A stretch of 64,000 nucleotides of DNA from an uncultured Clostridia bacterium (GTDB lineage Bacteria; Bacillota; Clostridia; TANB77; CAG-508). Position 1 is the stretch's first letter; each line of letters opens with the position of its first letter. The stretch is from assembly GCA_944389125.1 (NCBI GenBank), contig CALXLF010000002.1, forward strand, positions 164,588 through 228,587, in the 5' to 3' direction. Made by a program: the position numbers and the translations under genes. Positions 5,128-59,787 of this stretch are shown one piece after another. A model generated the notes under the pieces. The model did not search any database. It was given only the letters and a program-made list of their open reading frames with translations, and was not told the origin of the DNA.

Positions 5128-7545
5128 TCATCTTACAACAAAGTTGATGATACGTCGAGGAACGTAAACCACTCTTTGAATGGTTTTACCGTTCAACTTG
5201 TGTGTAACATACTCTTGCGCAATGGCTTCAGCTTCAGACTGGGTGGCATTGGGATCAATTTCTATTTTGGCAATAGTTTTTCCGTTCATTTGAACAGGAA
5301 TCTCGATTTTGTCAGATGCCATTTTGTCTTTATCAGCTTTAGGCCAATGACCGGTTATAAAGATACTCTGACTATGTCCAAGCTTTTGCCAGTATTCTTC
5401 CGCTGTATGTGGAGCACTTGGTGCCATAAGACAAGCCAGTATTTCCATGACAGATGTGAGAACTTTAGAATTTCTTCCTGTGTCCAAATATCTGCCAATT
5501 TGGTTGGAGAGTTCCATCATCTTAGCAATCGCAGTATTGAATTGGAAGACCTCAAAATCACGAGTGATTTTATCAATCGCAATGTTCATAAATTTTTCGA
5601 GATCTGCTTCTTCTTTACCATACAAGTCTGAAAACTCTTTGATGGCAAAGTACCTGTTATAGTACCGATCAATTCGTTTAAAGTACTTGTTGATTGCTTC
5701 GAGCCCACTATCTGACCATGGGCCACCTTCCGTGTATTTGAATCCGAACATCAGGTATGTGCGAAATACATCGCTACCATACTTTTCTACATATTCATCT
5801 GGAGAAACTGTATTACCTTTAGATTTACTCATCTTCTGGCCGTCAGCTCCGAGAATCATACCCTGATGTATAAGCCTTTGAAATGGCTCATTAATGTCCA
5901 AATATCCTGCGTCGCGAAGAGCTTTGGTTACAAATCTGGAATAGATCAGGTGCATACAGCTGTGTTCAGCACCACCAACGTACATATCCACAGGGAGCAT
6001 TTTATTGACAATATCCTTGTCAAATGCTTTTTTGGAATTCCGCGCATCGGGATAACGAAGCTGATACCAAGAGGAACACATAAATGTATCCATAGTATCT
6101 ACTTCTCGACGTGCTTTTTTACCACAGCATGGACATGTTGTTTCTACAAATTCGCGACATTTCGCAAGAGGAGACTCTCCAGTTGGTGAAAACTCAACAT
6201 CATAGGGGAGTTCAACCGGCAAATCCTTTTCGGGGACTGGTACGATTCCACAATTATCACAATAGATAATTGGAATTGGAGCACCCCAGTATCTCTGACG
6301 TGAGATAAGCCAATCTCTCAGCCTGTAAGATATTGCTTTTCCACCGCAGTTTTTCTGCTCCAAGAAAGTGTTGATGGTTTCCTTGGCTTGGGTTGCTGTC
6401 ATGCCATTGAGGAAATCAGAATTAATCATCATTCCATCTTTGCCAATATAGACCTTTTCAGAATCATTTCCATTTGAAATAACAGTGATGATTTCGAGGT
6501 CATGTTTTTTAGCAAATTCGTAGTCTTTTTCGTCATGTGCTGGAACAGCCATAGCAATTCCAGTCCCATAACTTTCAATGATGTAATCAGCTACCCAAAT
6601 GGGAATTTTCTTCCCAGTTACAGGATTGATAGCAAATGCACCAGTGAAGACACCAGTTTTTTCGTGCTTTGTTGACTGCCTTTCAATTTCAGTCAGATAT
6701 TCAGCTTGTTTTACATAGACATTAACATCCTCCTTAAACTCGTCAGTAACAATGTCTTCCAAAGCATCATGCTCAGGAGCAATAAGAAGAGCAGTACTGC
6801 CAAATACCATTTCTGGTTTGTCAGTGAAGACTTCGAGTTCTTTACCATTTTCAGTTTTGAAAATGATTTTTGACCCCTCAGTTTTACCAATCCATGCCCT
6901 TTGCATAGCTTTTGTCTTTTCTGGCCAATCAAGATGGTTCAGGCCTTCGATGAGTTCTTCTGCATAATCCGTGATTTTCAGAAACCACTGAGACATTTTT
7001 TTTGTGTGTACTTCAGTTCCACACCGTTCGCAGCAGCCATCTTTGACCTGTTCTCTAGCCAGAACGGTTTTGCATGATGGACACCAGTTTGCTGGAGCAG
7101 ACTTTTTATATGCAAGCCCCATTTTGTAGAGCTGCAGAAATACCCATTGTGTCCATTTGTAGTATTCTGGATCACAAGTGATGATTTCTTTACTCCAATC
7201 AAACATTCCGCCCATGTCATCAAGCTGGCGTTTCATGACAGCAATATTGTGATAAGTGCTGTTTTTTGGATGTACTCCTGTCTTGATAGCATAGTTTTCT
7301 GCCGGCAGTCCAAACGCGTCAAATCCCATAGGCTGAAATACAGCATATCCTTGAAGACGTTTGAATCTAGCCCAGCTATCAACTAGGCCAAAGTTGAACC
7401 AGTGCCCCAAATGAAGCTTGGCTCCTGACGGATACGAAAACATTTCCATGACATAGAGTTTCCGCTTGATGTTGCTTTCATGGAAAGTAGCAATGCCAAG
7501 CTCTTTCCATTTAGCTTGCCAAAGCCTTTCTTTTTCCAAGTTCAT
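5128..7545 (-). CDS. leuS: leucyl-tRNA synthetase, second copy with markedly higher G+C (probable horizontal acquisition)
   Basis: 805 aa and full length, with HLGHWFNF and KMSKSKGN motifs. By eye it is about two-thirds identical to the first copy over the N-terminal 230 aa. GC is visibly about 40-45% versus under 30% for the neighbours, and the many spurious antisense ORFs are typical of GC-richer DNA. The start has an AAAGGAGAG RBS. Confidence 0.9.
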   Translation of the reverse strand: MNLEKERLWQAKWKELGIATFHESNIKRKLYVMEMFSYPSGAKLHLGHWFNFGLVDSWARFKRLQGYAVFQPMGFDAFGLPAENYAIKTGVHPKNSTYHNIAVMKRQLDDMGGMFDWSKEIITCDPEYYKWTQWVFLQLYKMGLAYKKSAPANWCPSCKTVLAREQVKDGCCERCGTEVHTKKMSQWFLKITDYAEELIEGLNHLDWPEKTKAMQRAWIGKTEGSKIIFKTENGKELEVFTDKPEMVFGSTALLIAPEHDALEDIVTDEFKEDVNVYVKQAEYLTEIERQSTKHEKTGVFTGAFAINPVTGKKIPIWVADYIIESYGTGIAMAVPAHDEKDYEFAKKHDLEIITVISNGNDSEKVYIGKDGMMINSDFLNGMTATQAKETINTFLEQKNCGGKAISYRLRDWLISRQRYWGAPIPIIYCDNCGIVPVPEKDLPVELPYDVEFSPTGESPLAKCREFVETTCPCCGKKARREVDTMDTFMCSSWYQLRYPDARNSKKAFDKDIVNKMLPVDMYVGGAEHSCMHLIYSRFVTKALRDAGYLDINEPFQRLIHQGMILGADGQKMSKSKGNTVSPDEYVEKYGSDVFRTYLMFGFKYTEGGPWSDSGLEAINKYFKRIDRYYNRYFAIKEFSDLYGKEEADLEKFMNIAIDKITRDFEVFQFNTAIAKMMELSNQIGRYLDTGRNSKVLTSVMEILACLMAPSAPHTAEEYWQKLGHSQSIFITGHWPKADKDKMASDKIEIPVQMNGKTIAKIEIDPNATQSEAEAIAQEYVTHKLNGKTIQRVVYVPRRIINFVVR

Positions 7546-20371: not shown

Positions 20372-20902
20372 ATGAATTATGCAGATATAAAAAAATATGA
20401 TATTGCAAATGGTCCAGGTGTGCGTGTATCAATATTTGTAAGTGGTTGTACACATCATTGCAAAGGATGTTTTAACGAAGAAGCCTGGGATTTTAATTAT
20501 GGAAAAAAATTCGATAAGGAAACAGAAGAAGAAGTATTAGAAGCATTAGAACCAGATTATATAAAAGGTTTATCTTTACTAGGTGGAGAGCCTTTTGAGT
20601 ATCAAAATCAGAAAGGATTATTGCCTGTTATTAAAAAAGCTAAACAAAAATATCCAAATAAAAAAATATGGTGTTATAGTGGATATTTATTTGATAAAGA
20701 TATTGTAGAAAATATGGCAACAAAGTATGAAGAAACTAGAGAAATGCTAAAAAATATAGATTACTTAGTAGATGGCGAATTTGATAAATCAAAAAAGAAA
20801 CCAGATTTACAATTTAAAGGTTCTACTAATCAAAGAATAATAGATGTTCAAAAAAGTTTAAAAGAGAAAAAAGTTGTCCTTTGGGATGGAAATATGGAAT
20901 AA
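20372..20902 (+). CDS. nrdG: anaerobic ribonucleoside-triphosphate reductase activating protein
   Basis: YDIANGPGVRVSIFVSGCTHHCKGCFNEEAWDF is the canonical NrdG radical-SAM signature. Length is 176 aa. Confidence 0.9.
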   Translation: MNYADIKKYDIANGPGVRVSIFVSGCTHHCKGCFNEEAWDFNYGKKFDKETEEEVLEALEPDYIKGLSLLGGEPFEYQNQKGLLPVIKKAKQKYPNKKIWCYSGYLFDKDIVENMATKYEETREMLKNIDYLVDGEFDKSKKKPDLQFKGSTNQRIIDVQKSLKEKKVVLWDGNME

Positions 20903-21022
20903 TAAATTTTAAAAAAAGCTATTCTTAAATTGTAATTTTTGCATATAAGTATAGCTTTTTGCTTTGTATAAAAATGTAAAAATAGGTTGAAAAAAAAGAG
21001 TAATAATGATATACTCTTGAGC

Positions 21023-22099
21023 ATGATAGAAGAAAAGAGAAAAAAAGTGTTACATATTGTAGAGGCTTTTGCTGGAGGAATTTTTTCAATTCTTGTAGAT
21101 CTAGTAAATTCTACATGTGATGAATTTGATATTGTTATTGCATATTCTAAAAGAGTACAAACACCAGAAAATTTCAAAAGCTATTTTGCCCCAAATGTTA
21201 AGTTTATAGAAGTCAAAAATTTTACTAGAAGTATTAGCTTTAAAAAGGACATAAAAGCTTTTTTTGAGATAAGAAAAATTATAAAAGAAGAAAAACCAGA
21301 TGTAATACATCTTCACTCATCTAAAGCTGGATTTTTGGGTAGATTTGCTGCAAATGGCAAAAAAATAAGAATGCTATATAATCCACATGGATTTTCTTTT
21401 TTAATGCAAGATAGTTCTAAATTAAAAAGAAAAATTTATTGGATAATAGAAAAAATTGGAGCAATGAGAAAATGTACTATAGTTGGATGTTCTCAAGGCG
21501 AATATGAAGAAGCTTTAAAATTAAGTAAAAATTCAATATGTATTAATAATGGGTTAAATGTGGAAAAATTACAAAATGAAACAAAAGATTTTAAAAGAAA
21601 AGATATTGATTTCAATAATTTAAAAATTTGTACAAGCGGAAGAATTGGATATCAAAAAAATCCTAAGCTTTTCAATAAAATTGCAGAAAATTTTCCAGAA
21701 CTTAAATTTACATGGATAGGTGATGGAGATTTAAGAGAAGAACTAACTAGTAAAAATATAAATATTACAGGTTGGAAAACAAGAAGTGAAGTTTTAGAAC
21801 TTGTAAATGAAAACGATATTTTTGTTTTAACATCTCTTTGGGAAGGATTACCAGTTTCTTTATTAGAAGCAATGTATTTAGGTAAAATTTGTATAGTTAC
21901 TGATTGCATCGGAAATAGAGATGTAATTAAAGATGGAGAAAATGGTTTTATAATAAATGAAGAAAATTATAAAAATGTAATTCAAAATTTAAATAATACA
22001 GTTTGCCAAAAGGTTTCTAAAAAAGCAAAACAAGATATACTAGATAAATTTAATGTTAAAAAAATGGCAGAAGAATATAGGAGAGAATACTATGGCTAA
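21023..22099 (+). CDS. glycosyltransferase family 4
   Basis: C-terminal EGLPVSLLEAMYLGKICIVTDCIGNRDVIKDGENGFII (GT4 EX7E-type motif). The start is likely ATG 21023; the ORF is open from TTG 20987. Confidence 0.75.
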   Translation: MIEEKRKKVLHIVEAFAGGIFSILVDLVNSTCDEFDIVIAYSKRVQTPENFKSYFAPNVKFIEVKNFTRSISFKKDIKAFFEIRKIIKEEKPDVIHLHSSKAGFLGRFAANGKKIRMLYNPHGFSFLMQDSSKLKRKIYWIIEKIGAMRKCTIVGCSQGEYEEALKLSKNSICINNGLNVEKLQNETKDFKRKDIDFNNLKICTSGRIGYQKNPKLFNKIAENFPELKFTWIGDGDLREELTSKNINITGWKTRSEVLELVNENDIFVLTSLWEGLPVSLLEAMYLGKICIVTDCIGNRDVIKDGENGFIINEENYKNVIQNLNNTVCQKVSKKAKQDILDKFNVKKMAEEYRREYYG

Positions 22100-24467
22100 A
22101 AAAGTTGGAATTGTTTCATGCTATTTTAAAAATAATTATGGAAGTATGCTTCAAGCATATGCAACTAAAAAAATATTAGATAATAACAATATTCCTAATG
22201 AAACAATAAATGTTGATAATAATATAGATTTTAAAAAAGGAAAAAGAAATTATTATATTTCTCAAATATTTAATTTTAATTTTATAAAATCTAAATTTGG
22301 AATGATAAAACTAAAATTAGATAAAAAAATTGTAAAAGATTTAGGAAAAAATATAAATATAAGAAATAATAAATATAAAGAATTTAGAAGAGAATTTAAT
22401 TTATCTAAAAGTGTAAATACATACTCAGAACTTAATAAAATGGCAAAAGTAAAATATTCAGATGTTTTATTAGGTTCTGACCAGTTATGGTTACCTGTAA
22501 ATGTAGTAGCTGATTATTATACATTAAATTGGGTACCAGACAATATTAATAAAATTTCTTATGCTACTTCATTTGGGGTATCAAGTATTCCAGACAAATA
22601 TTATGAAAAATATAAACTTTTTTTAAGAAGATTTGATCATTTATCTATAAGAGAAGATAGTGGAATAAAACTCGCTAAAGAAATAGCAGGTATTAATGGA
22701 AAATTAGTATGTGATCCAACTTTATTATTAACAAAAGAAGAATGGGAAAATGAAGCATCAAAAGAAAGAAAATATAATGAAAAATACATTCTTTGCTATT
22801 TTTTAGGAAGCAATATAGAACATAGAAAATTTGCTGAAAAACTTAGAGATAAAACAGGATATAAAATTGTTTCATTAAATCACGCAGATGAATATGTTAA
22901 ATATTCAGATGAATTTTGTGATTATGCGCCATATGATATAGGCCCAAGAGAGTGGATAAGTTTATTAAAAAATGCGGAATATGTTTTAACTGATTCATTT
23001 CATGGAACTGTTTTTTCACTGATATTTAATAAACAATTCTTTTGTTTTAGAAGGTATAGTGCAAATGCAACAGGTTCAACAAACTCTAGATTAGATTCAT
23101 TATTAAAAGTAGCTGAAGTAAGTAATGAAAGAATACTTTCAGGAACAGAAAATATTGATGATGTTTTAAAATATAAAATAGATTTTGAAAAAGTTAATAA
23201 TAATATAGAAAAATTCAGGGATGATTCTAAAAAATGGTTATTAAAAGCTATTTCTTATAAGCCAGATAAAGAAAAATGTATTAATATAACAGATAAAGAT
23301 TTATGTACTGGATGTACAGCATGTAAAAATATTTGTCCAAAAGATGCTATAGAAATGGTTAAGGATGAAGAAGGATTCTTATATCCTAAAATAGATCCGA
23401 GAAAATGCATTGAATGCGGAAAGTGTAAAAAAGTTTGTCCAGTGCTTAATAAAAAGAAAAGAGAAGATTTTAAACAAAAAGGATATATTTTTCAATATAA
23501 AGATAATGATATTAGAAAACAGAGTACTTCTGGAGGAGCTTTTACAGCAATAGCTGATTATGTAATAGAAAAAGGTGGAGTTGTTTTTGGAGCTTGTTTT
23601 GATGAAAATTTTAAGGTAATACATCAAAAAGCAGAAACTAAAGAAGAATTAGAAAAGTTTAGAAATAGTAAATATGTACAAAGTGATTTGAAAAATACTT
23701 TTAAAGAAGCAAAAAAATTATTAGATAAAGGAACTTTAGTATGCTATAGTGGAACAGCTTGTCAAATTGAAGGTTTAATAGCATATTTAGGAAAAGTCTA
23801 TGATAATTTAATAACAGTTGATGTTATTTGTAGAGCTGTACCATCACCTTTATTATGGGAAAAATATATAGAATATAAAGATAAACAAAAAAAAGCTAAA
23901 AAGATTTATTTTAGGGAAAAATTTTATGGATATAAATATTCAAATTTAGCAATGCATGATGAGTCAACAGTTTTTTATCATAATGGAGTTGATACAGATC
24001 CATATTTAAGAGCATTTTTCTCAAATATAGCATGCAGACCATCTTGTTATAGTTGTAATTTTAAAGAACAACTTCATAAAGCTGATTTTACAATTTGGGA
24101 TTGTTTCGATGTAAGTAAATATGATGAGTCTTTTGATGATGATTTAGGAACAACAAGAATATTATTAAATAGTGATAAAGCAATTAAAGTATTTGATGAA
24201 ATAAAAGAAAAACATAATACAAAAGAAGTAGATGTAGATTTTCTAGTATCTAATTTTCATCAAATGTTTAATTCAATAAAATATAATTCAAAAAGAAAAG
24301 AATTTTTTGATGATTTAAATAATGAAGAATTTACTTCAGTAATAAGCAAATATTTTCCAAATACATTAAAATGTAGATTAGAAAAGTATGGAAGAATAAC
24401 ATTAATAAAATTAGGTTTATATAAGCCTATAATTAAGTTAGGAAAAAAGATAAGAAAACGTATTTAA
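22092..24467 (+). CDS. fusion protein: polysaccharide pyruvyl transferase domain + 2x[4Fe-4S] ferredoxin + FrhB-like (coenzyme F420 hydrogenase beta-subunit family) domain
   Basis: The N-terminal MAKKVGIVSCYFKNNYGSMLQAYA is typical of PvT/CsaB-family starts. Two CxxCxxCxxxCP clusters (CTGCTACKNICP, CIECGKCKKVCP) sit mid-protein, followed by an FrhB-like C-terminal region (STSGGAFTAIADYV...). ATG 22092 overlaps the stop of the upstream GT4. Confidence 0.7.
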   Translation: MAKKVGIVSCYFKNNYGSMLQAYATKKILDNNNIPNETINVDNNIDFKKGKRNYYISQIFNFNFIKSKFGMIKLKLDKKIVKDLGKNINIRNNKYKEFRREFNLSKSVNTYSELNKMAKVKYSDVLLGSDQLWLPVNVVADYYTLNWVPDNINKISYATSFGVSSIPDKYYEKYKLFLRRFDHLSIREDSGIKLAKEIAGINGKLVCDPTLLLTKEEWENEASKERKYNEKYILCYFLGSNIEHRKFAEKLRDKTGYKIVSLNHADEYVKYSDEFCDYAPYDIGPREWISLLKNAEYVLTDSFHGTVFSLIFNKQFFCFRRYSANATGSTNSRLDSLLKVAEVSNERILSGTENIDDVLKYKIDFEKVNNNIEKFRDDSKKWLLKAISYKPDKEKCINITDKDLCTGCTACKNICPKDAIEMVKDEEGFLYPKIDPRKCIECGKCKKVCPVLNKKKREDFKQKGYIFQYKDNDIRKQSTSGGAFTAIADYVIEKGGVVFGACFDENFKVIHQKAETKEELEKFRNSKYVQSDLKNTFKEAKKLLDKGTLVCYSGTACQIEGLIAYLGKVYDNLITVDVICRAVPSPLLWEKYIEYKDKQKKAKKIYFREKFYGYKYSNLAMHDESTVFYHNGVDTDPYLRAFFSNIACRPSCYSCNFKEQLHKADFTIWDCFDVSKYDESFDDDLGTTRILLNSDKAIKVFDEIKEKHNTKEVDVDFLVSNFHQMFNSIKYNSKRKEFFDDLNNEEFTSVISKYFPNTLKCRLEKYGRITLIKLGLYKPIIKLGKKIRKRI

Positions 24468-24499
24468 CAAAAGTTAAAGCTTAGGAAGGAATAGCAAAG

Positions 24500-25609
24500 A
24501 TGAAAATAGCTAAAAGAGATATTACAAAAATAGAAATAGACAAAAAAATTATATATTTCTTATTTCCAATTTTAATTATAATTGCAAAGATTATTAGATA
24601 TACATTAATGAAAGAGACTTTGGTTGACGAAGGAATAGGACATAGTTTTATTGAATTAATTAATAATAAAATTTATACTAATAGAATTATTGGAGAAATA
24701 CTGACAATAAAATTTTTTGATTTATTAAATATATTTAATCTTTCAACATATATTCAATTTGAAATTTATATTTCGATTATATGGAATTTAATTTTATTTT
24801 TGATTATATTTAAATTAAATAAAAAATTAGATATCATACAAGCTTTATTTGTTGTTTTATCAATAGTTATTTTAAATATATTTGATTTTTGCTTGGCTAA
24901 AGAACCAGTTCAAATGTTATATTTTATTGCTATTTATTTAATTATTTGTAGCAAAAGATTATCTATTATATTTAAAAGTATTTTTACTCTTTTGATATTT
25001 TTATTGATAGCTATTATATTACGAAAATATTATATTTTAATGGCATTTTTCTTTTTAGTTATATATGGTAGTTATTACTTATTAAAAAAATTTGATGTAA
25101 AAAAATATAGAGTTATGATTATTACATTATGTATAATAATTTCTCTTATGTCACTTTTAATTTTAAGTAGTTTATTTATGCCAAGTCAGTATAAAGATTT
25201 AGTAAAAGTTAGAAAAACTATAAGTGATGCTGCTTCTGATATTCACGTTATTAGTGAAACTCAAATTAATCCTAGCATGATGATATTATTTGTAGATTAT
25301 ATAATTGTATTTATAAGGTTAATATTTCCTATAGAGTTATTACCATTAGGAATAAAATATATACCATATATTGTATATCAATTACTAATTACATATATAA
25401 TAATTAAATCAATAAGAACTTTATATCAAAATAATGAAAGTAGAAATATATCTATTTTTGCATATATAGCATTTGTTTTAGGGTCTGCTATGTTTGAACC
25501 AGATTTTGGTTCATGGATAAGGCATGAAGCTGTATTTTGTCCAATAATATTTATAGCATGTAATGCAAAAACTATAAAAGAAAAAGTAAAAAGTGAGGAA
25601 GAAAAATAG
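24500..25609 (+). CDS. polytopic membrane protein, probable oligosaccharide repeat-unit polymerase (Wzy/EpsG-like)
   Basis: About 10 predicted TM helices and a Phe/Ile-rich composition, in a polysaccharide-locus context. Confidence 0.5.
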   Translation: MKIAKRDITKIEIDKKIIYFLFPILIIIAKIIRYTLMKETLVDEGIGHSFIELINNKIYTNRIIGEILTIKFFDLLNIFNLSTYIQFEIYISIIWNLILFLIIFKLNKKLDIIQALFVVLSIVILNIFDFCLAKEPVQMLYFIAIYLIICSKRLSIIFKSIFTLLIFLLIAIILRKYYILMAFFFLVIYGSYYLLKKFDVKKYRVMIITLCIIISLMSLLILSSLFMPSQYKDLVKVRKTISDAASDIHVISETQINPSMMILFVDYIIVFIRLIFPIELLPLGIKYIPYIVYQLLITYIIIKSIRTLYQNNESRNISIFAYIAFVLGSAMFEPDFGSWIRHEAVFCPIIFIACNAKTIKEKVKSEEEK

Positions 25610-25613
25610 TAAA

Positions 25614-26744
25614 ATGACAAAAGTTTTATTTTTTGTTGATAGAATGTTAAAAGGTGGAATTCAATCTTTAGTAATTGAAATAGTTAGAAATATAAATAAA
25701 GAAAAAGTACATATTGATTTTTTATTATTAGATGATGGAAATGAATATGATCTTGAAAATACATTAAAAGATTTGGGGTGCGAAGTTTACAAATTAAATG
25801 GTATTTGGGTTAATACTCCTTTAGATTTTGTTAAATATATAAAAGCTTTAGATAATTTTTTTAAAGAACATAATGACTATGATGTTATACATATGCATTC
25901 TTCTAGCAAAAATTATATGGTATTAAAAAAAGCAAAAAAATATGGAATACCTGTTAGAATTGCTCATTCACATAACATAGATTTTCAAACCAAAAATCCA
26001 ATAAAGAAATTTTTGGGAAATATTTTTAAAAGTTTTCTTAAGAAGTATGCTACTGATTATTTTGCTTGTTCTAAAATTGCAGGAGAATGGCTTTTTGGAG
26101 AAAAAATTGTAAATTCAGAAAAATTTTATGTAATACATAATGCAATAGACTATGATAAATTTAAATTTAATGAAGAAAAAAGAAATAAAATTAGAAAAGA
26201 ACTTGATGTAAAAGATGATGAATTAGTTATAGGACATGTTGGAAGATTTACAAATCAAAAAAATCATGATTTTTTAATAGATATTTTTTATGAAATGTAT
26301 AAAATTAACCAAAATATAAGGTTACTATTAATAGGCAAGGGAGAGAATGAAGAATTAATAAAAATAAAGGTTAAAAAATTGAATTTAGAAAATCTGGTAA
26401 TGTTTCTAGGATTTAAAAAAGATGTTTATAATTATTATCAAGCTATGGATGTATTTTTGCTTCCATCTAAATATGAAGGATTACCAGTTACTTTAGTTGA
26501 GGCTCAAGCAAATGGATTGCCAATTTTTACTTCTAAGAAAGTTGTTTCAGATGAAGTAAAACTATGTGATAATCTATATTTTATTGAATTAGATAAAAAA
26601 CCTGAAGAATGGGCAAAAGAAATTTTAAGTAAAGATTTAACTAGAATTAATACATATCAAAATTTTAAAGATAATAGATATTTTATTAACGATACAGTTG
26701 ATTTTTTAGAAGAATTCTATGAAAAAAATACTCAAAGGAAATAA
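25614..26744 (+). CDS. glycosyltransferase family 4
   Basis: EGLPVTLVEAQANGLPIFTS motif, with an ATG after a GAGGAAGAAAAA RBS. Confidence 0.75.
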   Translation: MTKVLFFVDRMLKGGIQSLVIEIVRNINKEKVHIDFLLLDDGNEYDLENTLKDLGCEVYKLNGIWVNTPLDFVKYIKALDNFFKEHNDYDVIHMHSSSKNYMVLKKAKKYGIPVRIAHSHNIDFQTKNPIKKFLGNIFKSFLKKYATDYFACSKIAGEWLFGEKIVNSEKFYVIHNAIDYDKFKFNEEKRNKIRKELDVKDDELVIGHVGRFTNQKNHDFLIDIFYEMYKINQNIRLLLIGKGENEELIKIKVKKLNLENLVMFLGFKKDVYNYYQAMDVFLLPSKYEGLPVTLVEAQANGLPIFTSKKVVSDEVKLCDNLYFIELDKKPEEWAKEILSKDLTRINTYQNFKDNRYFINDTVDFLEEFYEKNTQRK

Positions 26745-26763
26745 TTATAAAAAGGAGATAATA

Positions 26764-27735
26764 ATGAATAATTATACGGTTTTTGATACAGCATGTGGTA
26801 GTTTAAATGTTGGAGACCAAATTATTATGGACTCATTTGAAAAAGAAATGAAATTTATATTAGATACAGGTTTTGTTGGTAGATTTCCTACACATACACC
26901 AATATTTCATTTTTATCAGGCAAATAGATTTAATCATACTTTTAGATATATTAATTCATCAAAGTATAAGTTTGTTGCTGGTACTAATATATTATGTAAA
27001 AATTTATTGCAACCTTGGCCTAATTGGAATATGAATATTTTTAATTGTTCGCCATATAAAGATTGTATTCTTGTTGGATGTGGAAGCGGTAAAGGCGATA
27101 AGATGAATTTATATACTAGATTAGTATATGATAAAATTTTAAATAAACAGTTTTTACATTCAACTAGAGATGAAAAAACTAAGAATGAATTAGAAAAACT
27201 TGGATTACATGCTATAAATACTGGATGTGTTACTACATGGGGGCTTACAGATGAAGCTTGTAGTAAAATTGAAACTAATAAGTCTGATTCAGTTATATTT
27301 ACTTTAACAGATTATAAAAAAAATGAAGAAATAGATAAAAAATTTATTGATATTCTAAAAAGAAATTATAATAAAGTTTATTTTTGGATACAAGGTTCTT
27401 CTGATTTAAAATATTTTAATACATTAGAAAATACAAAAGATATAGAAATTGTTCCTCCATCTTTACATGCTTTTCAAAATATTTTAATAAATAAAAAAGT
27501 GGATTATATTGGAACTAGATTACACGCTGGTATATTTGCTATGAAAAATTATATTAGGAGTATAATTATAGCTATAGATAATAGAGCTATAGATATGAGT
27601 AAAGATTACAATTTAAATTGTATTGTTAGAGAAAATTTGATAAATGAATTGGAAGATAAAATAAATAGTAAATTTAAGACTGAAATAAATATTAATATGA
27701 AAAATATAAACGAATGGAAAAGTCAATTTAAGTAA
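26764..27735 (+). CDS. polysaccharide pyruvyl transferase family protein
   Basis: N-terminal FDTACGSLNVGDQIIMDS is typical of WcaK/CsaB-type pyruvyl transferases. AGGAGA RBS. Confidence 0.65.
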   Translation: MNNYTVFDTACGSLNVGDQIIMDSFEKEMKFILDTGFVGRFPTHTPIFHFYQANRFNHTFRYINSSKYKFVAGTNILCKNLLQPWPNWNMNIFNCSPYKDCILVGCGSGKGDKMNLYTRLVYDKILNKQFLHSTRDEKTKNELEKLGLHAINTGCVTTWGLTDEACSKIETNKSDSVIFTLTDYKKNEEIDKKFIDILKRNYNKVYFWIQGSSDLKYFNTLENTKDIEIVPPSLHAFQNILINKKVDYIGTRLHAGIFAMKNYIRSIIIAIDNRAIDMSKDYNLNCIVRENLINELEDKINSKFKTEININMKNINEWKSQFK

Positions 27736-27795
27736 TAATATTTATGTGCTATTATATTGGGAAATGTAAAATATTATAAAATAGGAAGAAGATCA

Positions 27796-29256
27796 ATGGG
27801 AAAATTAAGTAGTGTAAAAAAGAATTATTTGTATAATGTTGTATATCAGCTTTTAATATTGATCTTGCCATTAATAACGGCTCCGTATTTGTCAAGAGTT
27901 GTTGGAGCTGAAGGAGTTGGTATATTCTCATATACATATTCAATAGTCTATTATTTTATGTTAATATGTCTATTAGGTGTAAATAACTATGGAAATAGAT
28001 GTATTGCTAAAACAAAATCCAATAAAGAGGAAATGTCTCGAACTTTTTGGGGAATATATACGTTCCAAGTATTTATGGGATTGTTGATGATACTTATCTA
28101 TTTAATATATGTTTTTTTATTTGAAAATGAATATAAAATAATTGGACTTATACAAGTTTTATATATAGTTTCTTCTGTGTTTGATATAAACTGGTTTTAT
28201 TTTGGCCTAGAAGAATTTAAATTAACTATAACGAGAAATTCTTTTGTTAAAATAGGTAGTGTTATATTAATATTTATATTTGTAAAAAATCCTTCTGATT
28301 TATGGAAATATACCTTAATAATGTCTGGAATGACAGTTCTAAGTCAATTATTATTATGGGGATTTGTAAAAAAAAGGATAAATTTTGTAAAATTAAAAAA
28401 AGAAGATATATTGAAACATATAAAACCAAATTTTATTTTGTTTATTCCAGTTATTGCAACTAGTATTTATAGAGTTATGGATAAAATAATGGTTGGTAAT
28501 ATGTCTACTGTTACAGAAGTTGGATATTACGAAAATGCAGAAAAGATTATTAATGTTCCACTTGCTTTAATTGCAGCATTGGGAACTGTAATGTTGCCTA
28601 GAATTTCTAATATTTTAGTTCAAAAGGACAAAGAGGAAGTTGAAAAGAAAATAGATAATTATATAAATAAATCAATATCATTAATAATGTTTATGTCATT
28701 TGCAATGAGTTTTGGAATAATAGCAGTGGGATATAATTTTGCACCACTATATTATGGAGCAGATTTTCAAAAATCTGGAGTGTTAATGATGATATTAGCA
28801 ATAACAATTCCAATGACTGCATTTGCTAATGTTTTAAGAACTCAATATTTAATTCCAAAGGAAATGGATAAAATATATTTAAAAGCAGTTTTTTTAGGTG
28901 CTATAATTAATTTAATATCAAATTTCATTTTTATTCCATATTTTGCAAGTATAGGAGCTTGTTTAGGAACTATTGCCGCTGAATTTACTGTTATGTTATA
29001 TCAAATAATAGCTTTAAGAAAATATTTAAGTATAAAAAAATATGTAAAAAATATAATTCCATTTTTTGTAAAAGCAATTATTATGTTTATAGTAGTATAT
29101 GCTCTTAATTATATAGATATGAAATCTATTATAAGACTTGTGAGTCAAATTGCTTTAGGTTGTGCTATTTATGGAATATTAAATATAAGATATATTTTTA
29201 ATTCATTAGATTTGAAAAATTTAATATTAACAACAAAAAAACAAAGAGCTATATAA
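27796..29256 (+). CDS. Wzx-type flippase (MOP/polysaccharide biosynthesis protein family)
   Basis: 12-14 TM helices and the conserved N-terminal YLSRVVGAEGVGIFSYTYS signature. Confidence 0.8.
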   Translation: MGKLSSVKKNYLYNVVYQLLILILPLITAPYLSRVVGAEGVGIFSYTYSIVYYFMLICLLGVNNYGNRCIAKTKSNKEEMSRTFWGIYTFQVFMGLLMILIYLIYVFLFENEYKIIGLIQVLYIVSSVFDINWFYFGLEEFKLTITRNSFVKIGSVILIFIFVKNPSDLWKYTLIMSGMTVLSQLLLWGFVKKRINFVKLKKEDILKHIKPNFILFIPVIATSIYRVMDKIMVGNMSTVTEVGYYENAEKIINVPLALIAALGTVMLPRISNILVQKDKEEVEKKIDNYINKSISLIMFMSFAMSFGIIAVGYNFAPLYYGADFQKSGVLMMILAITIPMTAFANVLRTQYLIPKEMDKIYLKAVFLGAIINLISNFIFIPYFASIGACLGTIAAEFTVMLYQIIALRKYLSIKKYVKNIIPFFVKAIIMFIVVYALNYIDMKSIIRLVSQIALGCAIYGILNIRYIFNSLDLKNLILTTKKQRAI

Positions 29257-58285: not shown

Positions 58286-58382
58286 CGTAAAAATAGTTAA
58301 AATTCGATAAAAATCTGTTGCAATAAAATTTTTATAATGTTATAATAATTTTTGGTATAAATTGGTTTAGGAGGAAAATTGA

Positions 58383-59627
58383 GTGAGATTAAGTTCAAAA
58401 GTAGACTTGGTTAATGAATCAACAGAAATTTTAAATCCAGTCTATGAAGAAAAAATGATATCTTTTCTTATTCGAGCTTTAACTAGATTTATAGATATAA
58501 TAGCAGGGTTAGTAGGAGTATTTTTATTAATACCTATAAGTTTATATGTAATTATAGAAAAAATAATAAAAAATGAACAAGGTCCTGTATTTTATTATCA
58601 CATAAGAATAGGAAAAAATGGAAAAGCATTTAAAATGTATAGATTAAATACAAGATCTATATTATGTGAATTTCCACAATTTATTAATGTTTTGGCAGGA
58701 ACAATGACTTTAGTTGGTCCTCGTCCTTATACAGTAAAACAGAAAGAGCAAATGGGAGATTATTTTAATATAATTTCTAGTGTAAAACCAGGTATAACTG
58801 GTATATATCAGATATCTGGAAGAAGTGTTGGTTTTGAAGAAAGATTAGATTTAGATGTTCATTATATTTTAAATCATTCTTTAAAACTTGATTTTAAAAT
58901 AATTTTAATTACTCTTTTTGTAACATTAAAAAATAAAAAGTCAACATACTATCAAAAATATGTTTATGAAGAAATTCCGAGAGAAACAGTTAGTAATTAT
59001 ATTTTAAGAAATATAAGATTATTTGTTAAAAGAGTAATAGATATAATTGGAGGATTAGTAGGGATAGTTTTATTAATTCCAGTAACAATTTTGATAGGAA
59101 TTGTAAATATTATTTTTAAAGAAAATGGTCCAATTTTTTATTCACAAGAGAGAATAGGAAAAAATGGAAAGAAATTTAAAATGTATAAATATAGAAGTAT
59201 GGTAGTAGATGCAGATAAAAAGTTAAAAACTATTTTACAAGAAAATGAAGAATTAAGAGAAGAATTTGAAAGAACAAGAAAATTAAAGAATGATCCTAGA
59301 ATAACAAAAATAGGAAAGGTTCTAAGAAAGACAAGCTTAGATGAGCTACCACAACTTATAAATGTTTTAAAAGGAGAAATGAGTTTAGTTGGTCCAAGAG
59401 CGGTTGTTGATGGAGAAATTGATTTGTTTGGAGAAAATAGAGATACAGTTTTATCAGTTAAACCAGGAATTACAGGATATTGGGCTGCTAATGGAAGAAG
59501 CAATACAACATATGAAGAAAGAGTTAATATGGAAACTTTTTATGCTAAAAACTTTAATCTTGCTTTAGACATAAAGATTTTATTTAAAACTGTATTTTCA
59601 GTTGTAAAAAGAGAAGGAGCTATTTAA
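58383..59627 (+). CDS. tandem-duplicated bacterial sugar (phosphoglycosyl) transferase: a degenerate N-terminal copy plus an intact C-terminal catalytic domain
   Basis: Copy 2 (about aa 218-414) has the re-entrant helix KRVIDIIGGLVGIVLLIP, KMYKYRSM, DELPQLINVLKGEMSLVGPR and KPGITG motifs of PglC/WbaP-type PGTs. Copy 1 (about aa 30-190) repeats the architecture (RFIDIIAGLVGVFLLIP, KMYRLNTRS, MTLVGPRP, KPGITG) but lacks about 50 aa and has LCEFPQF in place of the catalytic DE of LDELPQL. Confidence 0.75.
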   Translation: MRLSSKVDLVNESTEILNPVYEEKMISFLIRALTRFIDIIAGLVGVFLLIPISLYVIIEKIIKNEQGPVFYYHIRIGKNGKAFKMYRLNTRSILCEFPQFINVLAGTMTLVGPRPYTVKQKEQMGDYFNIISSVKPGITGIYQISGRSVGFEERLDLDVHYILNHSLKLDFKIILITLFVTLKNKKSTYYQKYVYEEIPRETVSNYILRNIRLFVKRVIDIIGGLVGIVLLIPVTILIGIVNIIFKENGPIFYSQERIGKNGKKFKMYKYRSMVVDADKKLKTILQENEELREEFERTRKLKNDPRITKIGKVLRKTSLDELPQLINVLKGEMSLVGPRAVVDGEIDLFGENRDTVLSVKPGITGYWAANGRSNTTYEERVNMETFYAKNFNLALDIKILFKTVFSVVKREGAI

Positions 59628-59645
59628 ATAAAAAATATGGATATA

Positions 59646-59687
59646 ACCTCAGAATATATATTCTGGGGGTCTTTTATTTTTTTAGTG
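59646..59687 (+). terminator. rho-independent terminator
   Basis: CAGAATATATATTCTG palindrome extended by CCT/GGGG, followed by a TCTTTTATTTTTTT run. Confidence 0.6.
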
Positions 59688-59787
59688 AAAAAATATTTGT
59701 AGTTAATAAAAAAATGATATTTTATATAGATTTTTATAATGTAAATTGATATAATAATCCATATAAAAATTTAGAGGGGATTTTAGT

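Follow-up and report, generated by a model that had tools for sequence, protein, structure and literature searches.

The ORF at positions 58383..59627 of the window (the whole 64,000-nt stretch of DNA that was analysed; all positions given are on the forward strand) was found to encode a tandem monotopic phosphoglycosyl transferase (PGT) of 414 aa followed by a stop codon, in which a degenerate PGT domain (copy 1) precedes a complete one (copy 2). The reading that we consider probable is that copy 2 is the enzyme, that copy 1 has been kept as a membrane partner without catalytic activity, and that the protein primes a Wzx/Wzy glycan. We infer the identity of the active copy, the sugar, the link to a glycan cluster upstream and the role of copy 1 from the comparisons described below.

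Both halves were compared with PF02397 (Bac_transf; gathering score cut-off 27 bits) and with each other, as had been proposed with the original prediction. Residues 1-188 matched in two stretches (130 bits), of which the better spans profile positions 88-178, and residues 189-414 scored 216 bits over the full profile (positions 1-179). Copy 1 spans aa 30-187 (58470..58943) and copy 2, the presumed catalyst, aa 212-414 (59016..59624), with an inter-domain linker of aa 188-211 (58944..59015) between them. The halves showed 36% protein identity (E 3e-38) with a single 41-residue gap in copy 1. In family alignments this gap was 42-43 residues, and the match of copy 1 to WbaP fell into two stretches with ~39 residues skipped between them. 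Alignments to copy 2 and to relatives placed the deletion junction at aa 90/91 (58650..58655). The prediction of two PGT domains in tandem, with the C-terminal one complete and the first one degenerate, was thus borne out, except that the deletion is smaller than the about 50 aa originally given.

Copy 2 was shown to contain the motifs KMYKYRSM, DPRITK, SLDELPQL, LVGPRA and KPGITG, with an intact catalytic dyad at D320-E321 (GAT GAG; 59340..59345). Copy 1 contains ILCEFPQF, LVGPRPY and KPGITG, and at the position of the Asp-Glu dyad it carries C95-E96 (TGT GAA; 58665..58670), the Asp being replaced by Cys. The segment missing from copy 1 corresponds to K-x-x-R-S/T-M, DPR and the Arg located five residues before the dyad of intact domains, and relatives with an intact copy 1 have 42-43 extra residues at the junction, RTM and DPR among them. 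This Arg is the equivalent of Arg88 of PglC, which has been implicated in UndP binding. An intact copy 1, the finding that had been named in advance as speaking against a pseudo-enzyme, was not observed, as both C95-E96 and the absence of 41-43 residues were evident in the alignments. Copy 1 has neither the Asp-Glu dyad nor the preceding KxxRS/TM-DPR-Arg segment of active enzymes and is probably no longer catalytically active.

Each half was predicted to contain a long hydrophobic helix, in which a Pro is invariant (P51 in copy 1, P233 in copy 2) and is preceded by basic residues. The predicted re-entrant membrane helix of copy 1 lies at aa 33-62 (58479..58568; invariant R35 and P51; helix 19-62 in the AF2 model) and that of copy 2 at aa 216-244 (59028..59114; invariant K216, R217, D220 and P233). 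In PglC, the helix-breaking Pro of the re-entrant helix is that of Ser23-Pro24. A Foldseek comparison of the AF2 model with the PDB, which reports one aligned domain, placed that domain on PglC (8E37 and 8G1N) with TM (target) 0.76-0.79 and E ~1e-13, in agreement with the PGT assignment. The pTM of 0.62-0.63 is uninformative for a protein of two equal domains, and the confidence of the linker was low in the deleted form (pLDDT <50 at residues 185-207).

The search for the same architecture in relatives, also proposed originally, revealed a large family. All close homologue clusters that were checked contained two domains (121/121). The two-domain layout is widespread among uncultured Clostridia of the gut and recurs in over 120 clusters assembled independently of one another. 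Both copies were intact in 72 of the 121 clusters (453-456 aa), and the deletion in copy 1 was found in 49. The dyad Asp position of copy 1 was occupied by Cys in 23/23 members of the window clade and by Ser in the sister clade with the deletion (26 members); overall, C, S, Y or R was found at this position in the deleted lineages, so that there is no consistent alternative nucleophile. Copy 2 carried DE in each of the 121 homologues and in every two-domain representative with that region aligned. Since the sister lineage (72 clusters) has both copies intact, a dead copy 1 would be the derived state. In an NJ domain tree, in which distortion by fast-evolving degenerate domains is possible, a single duplication received 97% bootstrap support, the intact class together with deleted group B 95%, and all deleted forms as one group 1%. 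The catalytic segment of copy 1 appears, as supported by NJ bootstrap, to have been lost at least two times independently within the tandem family.

In an alignment of 52 sequences, 35 positions of copy 1 were invariant, including P51, E96, the canonical PRP motif at P113-R114-P115 (58719..58727) and PG-TG of the KPGITG motif; KPGITG as a whole and Q143-I144 were conserved. PMC10186338 assigns the PRP motif to uridine-nucleotide binding. Copy 2 carries PRA, not PRP, at this place, with A340 invariant in all family members aligned, and since this deviates from the canonical motif, the activity of copy 2 is an assumption here. The distribution of these motifs would also fit a copy 1 that is an enzyme with altered chemistry, or halves that share a composite active site, for example with copy 1 supplying nucleotide or UndP binding to the dyad of copy 2, so that the protein would be a single-site enzyme resembling an obligate heterodimer. 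The presence of PRP in copy 1 and PRA in copy 2 throughout the family, the conservation of E96, KPGITG and Q143-I144 and the shortness of the inter-domain tether all favour such an arrangement. However, copy 2 has all motifs of a self-sufficient PGT and matches the full Pfam profile (216 bits), the solved active sites of PglC and WbaP sit inside one domain, and the two active sites of WbaP are reported to be 77 Å apart. Besides, the residue replacing the Asp varies by lineage, which speaks against a newly acquired, conserved role in catalysis. We regard altered chemistry or a composite site as rather unlikely.

Copy 1 is under purifying selection. At loci taken from contigs encoding homologues, its dN/dS was 0.11-0.35 and that of copy 2 was 0.11-0.14 (same-allele pairs); a metagenome scan with the window protein alone yielded 4 loci. 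These values bear on the possibility that copy 1 is a functionless, decaying relic of the duplication, kept only since without it copy 2 would be disturbed in its expression or its insertion into the membrane. Such decay would agree with the loss of the nucleophile and 43 residues and with the divergence of copy 1, which exceeds that of any other part of the protein: copy 1 shows 41-48% identity to the both-intact class, where the C-terminal part of copy 2 shows 74-81%, and only 36-37% identity to either domain of that class, whose own halves share 46-47%. On the other hand, the dN/dS of copy 1 is comparable to that of copy 2, the reading frame is retained in 49 clusters down to ~60% identity, and the invariant positions of copy 1 include PRP and PG-TG. 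Moreover, unrelated two-domain families also retain degenerate first copies, and no stand-alone derivative of the window lineage consisting of copy 2 only was seen. A mere relic therefore seems improbable. As a homologue of active enzymes that has lost the catalytic residues and is under purifying selection, copy 1 would rather be a pseudoenzyme domain, in line with the retained partner that we favour. A protein search with copy 1 alone returned mostly fragments and single-domain small PGTs at ~40% identity, with no convincing case of a stand-alone pseudo-PGT; the candidates P0277 and P0280 were rejected, as they look like truncated or frameshifted calls.

Replacement in strains with 98-100% identical flanks was limited to copy 2 and began in the linker, which forms the 5′ breakpoint of copy-2 cassette exchange in relatives. 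Between two of the related loci (L091 and L093), nucleotide identity was shown to fall from gene nucleotide ~594 on. The window gene and L091 share a cassette allele of the YWAANGRS type, and L093 and L094 one of the GLWQVNGRN type. As only copy 2 is replaced, copy 1 can be described as a constant module and copy 2 as a variable, presumably catalytic, module.

The tandem PGT starts with GTG, preceded at a distance of 8 nt by a Shine-Dalgarno sequence AGGAGG recognized by sequence reading (58369..58374), and this GTG as well as gene length and synteny is retained at four related loci (L091-L094). A promoter-like site (TTGCAA, 17-nt spacer, TATAAT, with extended TG; 58318..58346), identified by consensus scan alone with 10/12 matches, is located within the 97-nt gap 3′ of polA. 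A hairpin with a downstream T run, resembling a terminator (59647..59678), was found 20 nt past the stop codon, with one such site compared to 0.2 expected in shuffles. The tandem PGT may be expressed as its own transcription unit. Reading of the sequence from M124 to the middle of the copy 2 membrane helix revealed no ATG, GTG or TTG start, which rules out independent translation of copy 2.

On the DNA level, the halves matched only at 72-78% identity, and there is a difference of 129 nt (43 codons) between the two repeat spacings; the duplication is therefore old and does not stem from a repeat in the assembly. The identical 414-aa protein was called both in an ENA assembly and in a Logan assembly made independently from run ERR4096477, and a member with 99% identity was found on a 318-kb contig. 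An artefactual fused ORF, whether by the assembly-derived duplication that had been raised against the original prediction or by two neighbouring genes merged through a sequencing error, is of negligible probability and was ruled out, despite the frameshifted housekeeping genes in this assembly (a MiaB-like radical SAM gene and obg), by the divergence of the halves at both protein and DNA level, the agreement of two assemblers, the recurrence of two domains in every close homologue cluster examined from many samples, the lack of an internal start and the synteny and gene length shared by L091-L094.

In the both-intact relatives examined, the tandem PGT was found to be the first gene of Wzx/Wzy clusters. 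The tandem PGT of the window is an orphan and the only PF02397-like ORF in the 64 kb scanned; the conserved neighbours in its clade are polA and unannotated proteins, with no glycan genes. A Wzx/Wzy-type polysaccharide cluster without a PGT, identified by Pfam matches, is located 30 kb upstream (20987..29256) and is the putative downstream pathway. It comprises a GT4, an 804-aa fusion of pyruvyl transferase, 4Fe-4S and FrhB, a 369-aa polytopic membrane ORF, a second GT4, a pyruvyl transferase and a Polysacc_synt flippase. The second GT4 (25593-26744) showed 41% full-length identity (E 8e-84) to the GT4 located directly after the both-intact PGT in locus L003. The first GT4 (20987-22099) was rejected as the orthologue, as it is related to the PGT-adjacent GT4s only weakly, with 25-31% local identity. 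Co-location, the tandem PGT being the sole PGT in 64 kb and the one GT4 orthologue suggest that the tandem PGT is linked to this cluster.

Published work sorts monotopic PGTs into three classes: small (SmPGT), large (LgPGT) and bifunctional (BiPGT). The tandem PGT resembles the SmPGT PglC of Campylobacter concisus (PDB 8E37 and 8G1N) in fold and in the Pro-bearing re-entrant helix predicted here; the Asp-Glu dyad is shared with copy 2, and the PRP and KPGITG motifs are also common to both proteins. SmPGTs are single-domain proteins of about 150-250 aa that contain the catalytic domain only (PMC11626204), whereas the tandem PGT has 414 aa and two such domains per chain, the first one degenerate. 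Copy 2 is also nearer to hexose-1-P transferases than to diNAcBac-type enzymes. Among solved structures, the C-terminal catalytic domain of the LgPGT WbaP of Salmonella enterica (PDB 8T53) comes nearest to copy 2 (E 1e-56). LgPGTs (WbaP and Myxococcus EpsZ) have 456-476 aa compared to 414-456 aa for tandem PGTs, and both kinds seem to combine a non-catalytic N-terminal module with initiation of Wzx/Wzy pathways. The N-terminal module of WbaP is reported to serve dimerisation and regulation by uridine nucleotide. However, the tandem PGT has neither the four-helix transmembrane bundle nor the CoA_binding_3 DUF (PF13727) of LgPGTs; its Pfam matches are to PF02397 alone, and residues 1-211 consist of a PGT paralogue and the linker. 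The best model was TIGR03022 (WbaP), with 443 bits for the whole protein against a cut-off of 403. This cut-off was passed because two domain scores add up, as copy 2 alone scored 303 and fell under every equivalog cut-off. Copy 2 is closest to WbaP-type Gal-1-P transferases and may be assigned to the WbaP/RfbP-like hexose-1-P type. BiPGTs are fusions of a PGT to an acetyltransferase, a glycosyltransferase or similar and thus also carry a second domain of the same pathway superfamily, but the partner in the tandem PGT is a second PGT (PF02397), intact or dead, and not an enzyme of another step.

Judging from sequence, two-domain PGTs with a degenerate first copy are also present outside the tandem family. 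These include proteins of 630-700 aa consisting of CoA_binding_3, a degenerate PGT and an intact PGT (P0130, P0134, P0136 and others), which share the order of degenerate first and intact second PGT with the window protein. Their copy 1 dyads read DG, EG, SG, NG and similar, and copy 2 has DE wherever aligned. They differ from the window protein in an additional LgPGT-type N-terminal region, a shorter deletion in copy 1 (roughly 20-25 positions) and a much lower sequence similarity (38-48% identity).

Under the favoured reading, copy 2 (aa 212-414) would move a sugar phosphate of the hexose-1-phosphate type from a UDP-sugar onto undecaprenyl phosphate with D320 as nucleophile, as in PglC and WbaP. 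This reaction would start a polysaccharide made by the Wzx/Wzy route, with the pyruvylated glycan of the upstream cluster as the most likely product. Copy 1 (aa 30-187) would be a dead paralogue anchored in the cytoplasmic membrane leaflet by its own re-entrant helix and kept beside copy 2 by the short tether, with selection retaining it as a non-catalytic partner. It may act as a scaffold or pseudo-dimer mate, or may bind uridine nucleotide or UndP through the retained half with PRP and KPGITG. The monotopic topology known from PglC, with both termini cytoplasmic, would permit a head-to-tail fusion without a membrane crossing. Copy 1 could then be a functional counterpart of the accessory N-terminal domains found in large PGTs, whose part in dimerisation and uridine-nucleotide regulation makes an accessory N-terminal module a known need of the family.

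In agreement with the original remark that small PGTs of fused-tandem form were not known to its author, tandem, duplicated or pseudo-enzyme PGTs were found unmentioned in the searchable full-text literature. Catalogues of monoPGT fusions might list PGT-PGT fusions; such catalogues are reportedly contained in O'Toole et al. (PNAS, 2021) and in a BST review of 2021. The largest recent PGT survey was limited to proteins of 150-250 aa (PMC11626204), so that two-domain forms were filtered out. Tandem PGTs are automatically named WbaP because of their length and summed HMM score, and the present analysis corrects the annotation of a sizeable group of genes of gut Clostridia.

Monotopic PGTs are pursued as antibacterial targets and, to our knowledge, control entry into all Wzx/Wzy glycan pathways and many ABC-dependent ones. 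We tentatively put forward the possibility, which we consider less likely than its opposite, that covalent PGT-PGT tandems form an undescribed fourth class of monotopic PGTs, with a side-by-side pair of membrane-embedded PGT domains and one working site as the functional unit, in which decay of the first domain has occurred repeatedly. In such a class, the dead domain could serve as a sensor of uridine nucleotide or bring in UndP, and the catalytic second domain would be swapped as a cassette, changing the initiating sugar between strains. If true, the superfamily in general would require its catalytic domains to be paired, and pairing would not be a special trait of the WbaP accessory domains. 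A natural covalent pair with one site that appears dead by sequence provides a system for asking whether PGT catalytic domains need a partner, what a retained nucleotide-binding PGT half does without catalysis, and how strains may alter the priming sugar by exchange of a domain cassette.

The ORF at 58383-59627 (+) was found to have a GTG start codon with AGGAGG 8 nt 5′ of it, a promoter-like site in the 97-nt space separating it from polA, and a terminator-like site (hairpin and T-run) 20 nt 3′ of its stop codon. PF02397 (Bac_transf) was the sole Pfam family matched by the 414-aa product, and because both halves matched it, the original prediction of two monotopic phosphoglycosyl transferase (PGT) domains in tandem was borne out: residues 189-414 covered the whole profile (216 bits) and residues 1-188 matched it in two stretches (130 bits). 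The halves showed 36% identity to each other with a single 41-residue gap, located in the first domain (copy 1, aa 30-187), and copy 1 aligned to WbaP in two pieces with ~39 residues skipped. An internal deletion in copy 1 is thus present as predicted, with a size of 41-43 residues rather than ~50. All motifs claimed for the second domain (copy 2, aa 212-414; K-x-x-RSM, DELPQ, LVGPR and KPGITG) were located, as KMYKYRSM, SLDELPQL (D320-E321), LVGPRA and KPGITG, together with DPRITK. Copy 1 contained ILCEFPQF (C95-E96), LVGPRPY and KPGITG, so that the catalytic Asp is gone, as had been noted; the DPR loop was also missing, as was the stretch in which the Arg88 equivalent would lie, and a predicted membrane helix, the β-hairpin, E96, a canonical PRP and KPGITG were retained. 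Copy 2 carries PRA instead of the canonical PRP at aa 338-340 (59394-59402), with A340 invariant across the family, while the dead copy 1 retains PRP. In an AF2 model based on a 52-sequence alignment (pLDDT 78), both halves were folded, each with a long N-terminal helix, and one domain superposed on PglC in Foldseek (TM 0.76-0.79); the pTM was 0.62-0.63, a measure that is ambiguous for a chain of two equal domains.

An artefact check was needed because obg and a MiaB-like gene are frameshifted in the same assembly. The N-terminus of obg (17000-17330) is out of frame with the remainder of the gene, and the MiaB-like radical SAM gene (18598-19834) is broken at ~19228 and is a single 411-aa gene in the related locus L094; either indel errors in the assembly or true pseudogenes would explain them. 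For the PGT gene, DNA identity between the halves was 72-78% and confined to two blocks, whose spacings differed by 129 nt, equal to a 43-codon deletion. The identical 414-aa protein was called both in an ENA assembly and in a Logan assembly made independently from the reads, and 121 out of 121 close homologue clusters examined contained two domains. An assembly-derived duplication, which had been named in advance as an outcome that would overturn the prediction, was ruled out by the low DNA identity, the agreement of two assemblers and this recurrence; the duplication is genuine. Separate translation of copy 2 with a complete helix was also ruled out, since the window sequence contains no ATG, GTG or TTG start codon between M124 and the middle of the copy-2 membrane helix.

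The search for the same architecture in relatives, proposed together with the prediction, divided the 121 homologues into two forms. Seventy-two (453-456 aa) had two complete domains, with KFRTM, DPR and S/GLDEFPQ in copy 1, and 49 (410-442 aa) had a copy 1 without the catalytic segment, with Cys (23 clusters, the clade of the window gene) or Ser (26 clusters) at the Asp position. All 121 had DE in copy 2. The halves of the both-intact class were 46-47% identical to each other, and copy 1 of the window protein showed 36-37% identity to either of them. All named homologue records were from MAGs of uncultured Clostridia or Clostridiales from animal and human guts; the window itself has 26% GC and contains spoIVA. 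Among GTDB species representatives, two-domain forms were found in three (L007-L009) of the best 80 loci scanned.

Pairwise dN/dS values (Nei-Gojobori) among five members of the clade of the window gene were 0.11-0.35 for copy 1 and, in same-allele pairs, 0.11-0.14 for copy 2; purifying selection thus acts on the dead domain. Across 52 sequences, 35 copy-1 positions were invariant, including P51, E96, P113-R114-P115 and, in KPGITG, P136-G137 and T139-G140. In a neighbour-joining domain tree rooted by the paralogue, the copy-1 domains of the family formed one clade (97% bootstrap), which indicates a single duplication; copy 2 was polyphyletic and intermingled with single-domain PGTs. The both-intact class grouped with one deleted set (proteins P0122 and P0124 and locus L009) at 95% bootstrap, only 1% of replicates united all deleted forms, and the gap boundaries differed between the two deleted sets. 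On this evidence the family lost the catalytic segment on two or more independent occasions, with the caveat that the tree is a neighbour-joining one and includes fast-evolving domains.

Two related loci, L091 and L093, showed 98-100% identity across polA, copy 1 and the downstream gene, and 60-80% identity from the inter-domain linker (gene nt ~594) to ~145 nt 3′ of the stop codon. By pairwise nucleotide identity, this divergent stretch spans 6594-7390 of the locus (~58976-59770 in the window). The catalytic domain is swapped cleanly as a cassette inside one gene. The greatest difference between the two copy-2 alleles was in the stretch following the PR(P/A) motif, a region to which published work on PglC and WbaP has linked specificity, and the alleles may differ in sugar.

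In the both-intact relatives examined, classical Wzx/Wzy clusters began with the tandem PGT and also contained GT4, GT2, EpsG or Wzy, acetyl- and pyruvyl-transferases, a Polysacc_synt flippase and an FrhB/Fer4 protein; the deleted forms examined were orphans outside glycan clusters. Pfam analysis detected a Wzx/Wzy-type cluster of the same repertoire at 20987-29256 in the window, with no PGT within it, and its GT4 (25593-26744) showed 41% identity over the full length to the GT4 adjoining a both-intact tandem PGT in locus L003. We infer that the orphan PGT may prime this cluster. The cluster also encodes an 804-aa protein in which pyruvyl transferase, 4Fe-4S and FrhB are fused, these being separate genes in L003, and a strongly hydrophobic 369-aa ORF (24500-25609) without a Pfam match that may be a Wzy-like polymerase. 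The gene order polA, PGT, (948 aa, 578 aa), 790 aa and 4HBT thioesterase was kept in the clade of the window gene; another deleted form, P0037, was flanked by uvrB and a Sua5-like gene. The three large ORFs (948, 578 and 790 aa; 59788-62634 and 62656 onward in the window, 11406-18375 in the related locus L001) gave no match in a Pfam search. Hydrophobic segments lie at the N-termini of the first two, which are found in some strains only; the 790-aa protein and the thioesterase are constant downstream neighbours of the PGT in this clade. In L094 (2572-5916), polA and then PGT come immediately after an nrdG-like radical SAM activase gene; in the window, ~35 kb, beginning with the glycan cluster, separate the nrdG-like gene (20372-20902) from the polA side (55583), by either rearrangement or insertion.

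The window protein is a member of the monotopic PGT superfamily and falls outside its three described classes (PMC11626204): its 414 aa and two domains set it apart from small PGTs (SmPGT), unlike large PGTs (LgPGT) it has neither transmembrane bundle nor DUF, and unlike in bifunctional PGTs its fusion partner is another PGT domain. The whole protein passed the NCBIfam cut-offs of TIGR03022 (WbaP) and NF052601 (RfbP) only via summed domain scores, with copy 2 alone below both, and tandem PGTs are likely to be auto-annotated as WbaP/RfbP. As the main recent PGT survey was also restricted to proteins of 150-250 aa (PMC11626204), such a class could stay unnoticed. The original prediction regarded the fused-tandem form as undescribed, and the texts reached by a full-text literature search contained no tandem or pseudo-enzyme PGTs, which may yet be listed among the fusions catalogued in 2021. 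The observation itself is confirmed, and its reading as a degenerate first copy joined to an intact second is supported and extended.

Copy 2 is taken as the probable catalyst because none of the motifs of a self-sufficient PGT is missing from it and its nearest relatives are hexose-1-P transferases of the WbaP/RfbP type. Asp is the covalent nucleophile in monotopic PGTs, and the copy-2 Asp would act as such. The Asp-Glu dyad and the involvement of Arg88 and Arg145 in UndP binding are taken from cited PGT papers. A new catalytic role for copy 1 is unlikely, since it lacks the nucleophile, the Arg88-equivalent segment and the DPR loop and the replacement varies between lineages. Both termini of monotopic PGTs are cytoplasmic, so that a head-to-tail fusion is topologically free; with ~7 non-helical residues between the last helix of copy 1 and the helix of copy 2 in a both-intact AF2 model, the domains would lie side by side in the same membrane leaflet. 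According to published work on LgPGTs, accessory N-terminal domains form the dimer, with regulatory binding of UMP, UDP and UTP, and dimerisation is proposed as the active state. By analogy, copy 1 may be a structural or regulatory partner.

A HMMER scan of 1.84 billion representatives detected 63,925 PGT relatives, and 32 of the best 150 contained two PGT domains, in a ranking biased toward such proteins and thus not extrapolable to all relatives. In these, copy 2 had DE wherever the region aligned, and copy 1 was degenerate in most (DG, EG, SG, NG, DN, SN, YN, AR, DK, QN and others). A sizeable 630-700 aa family (P0130, P0131, P0134, P0136 and others) has a CoA_binding_3 region, the DUF of LgPGTs, followed by a degenerate (DG/EG/SG) and an intact PGT; in P0236 (880 aa), CoA_binding_3 lies between a PGT-like and a PGT domain. 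The two-domain proteins P0127, P0135 and P0160 were placed outside the copy-1 clade of the tandem family, which points to separate duplications. A pseudo-PGT followed by a PGT is thus a recurrent solution and not the oddity of a single genome.
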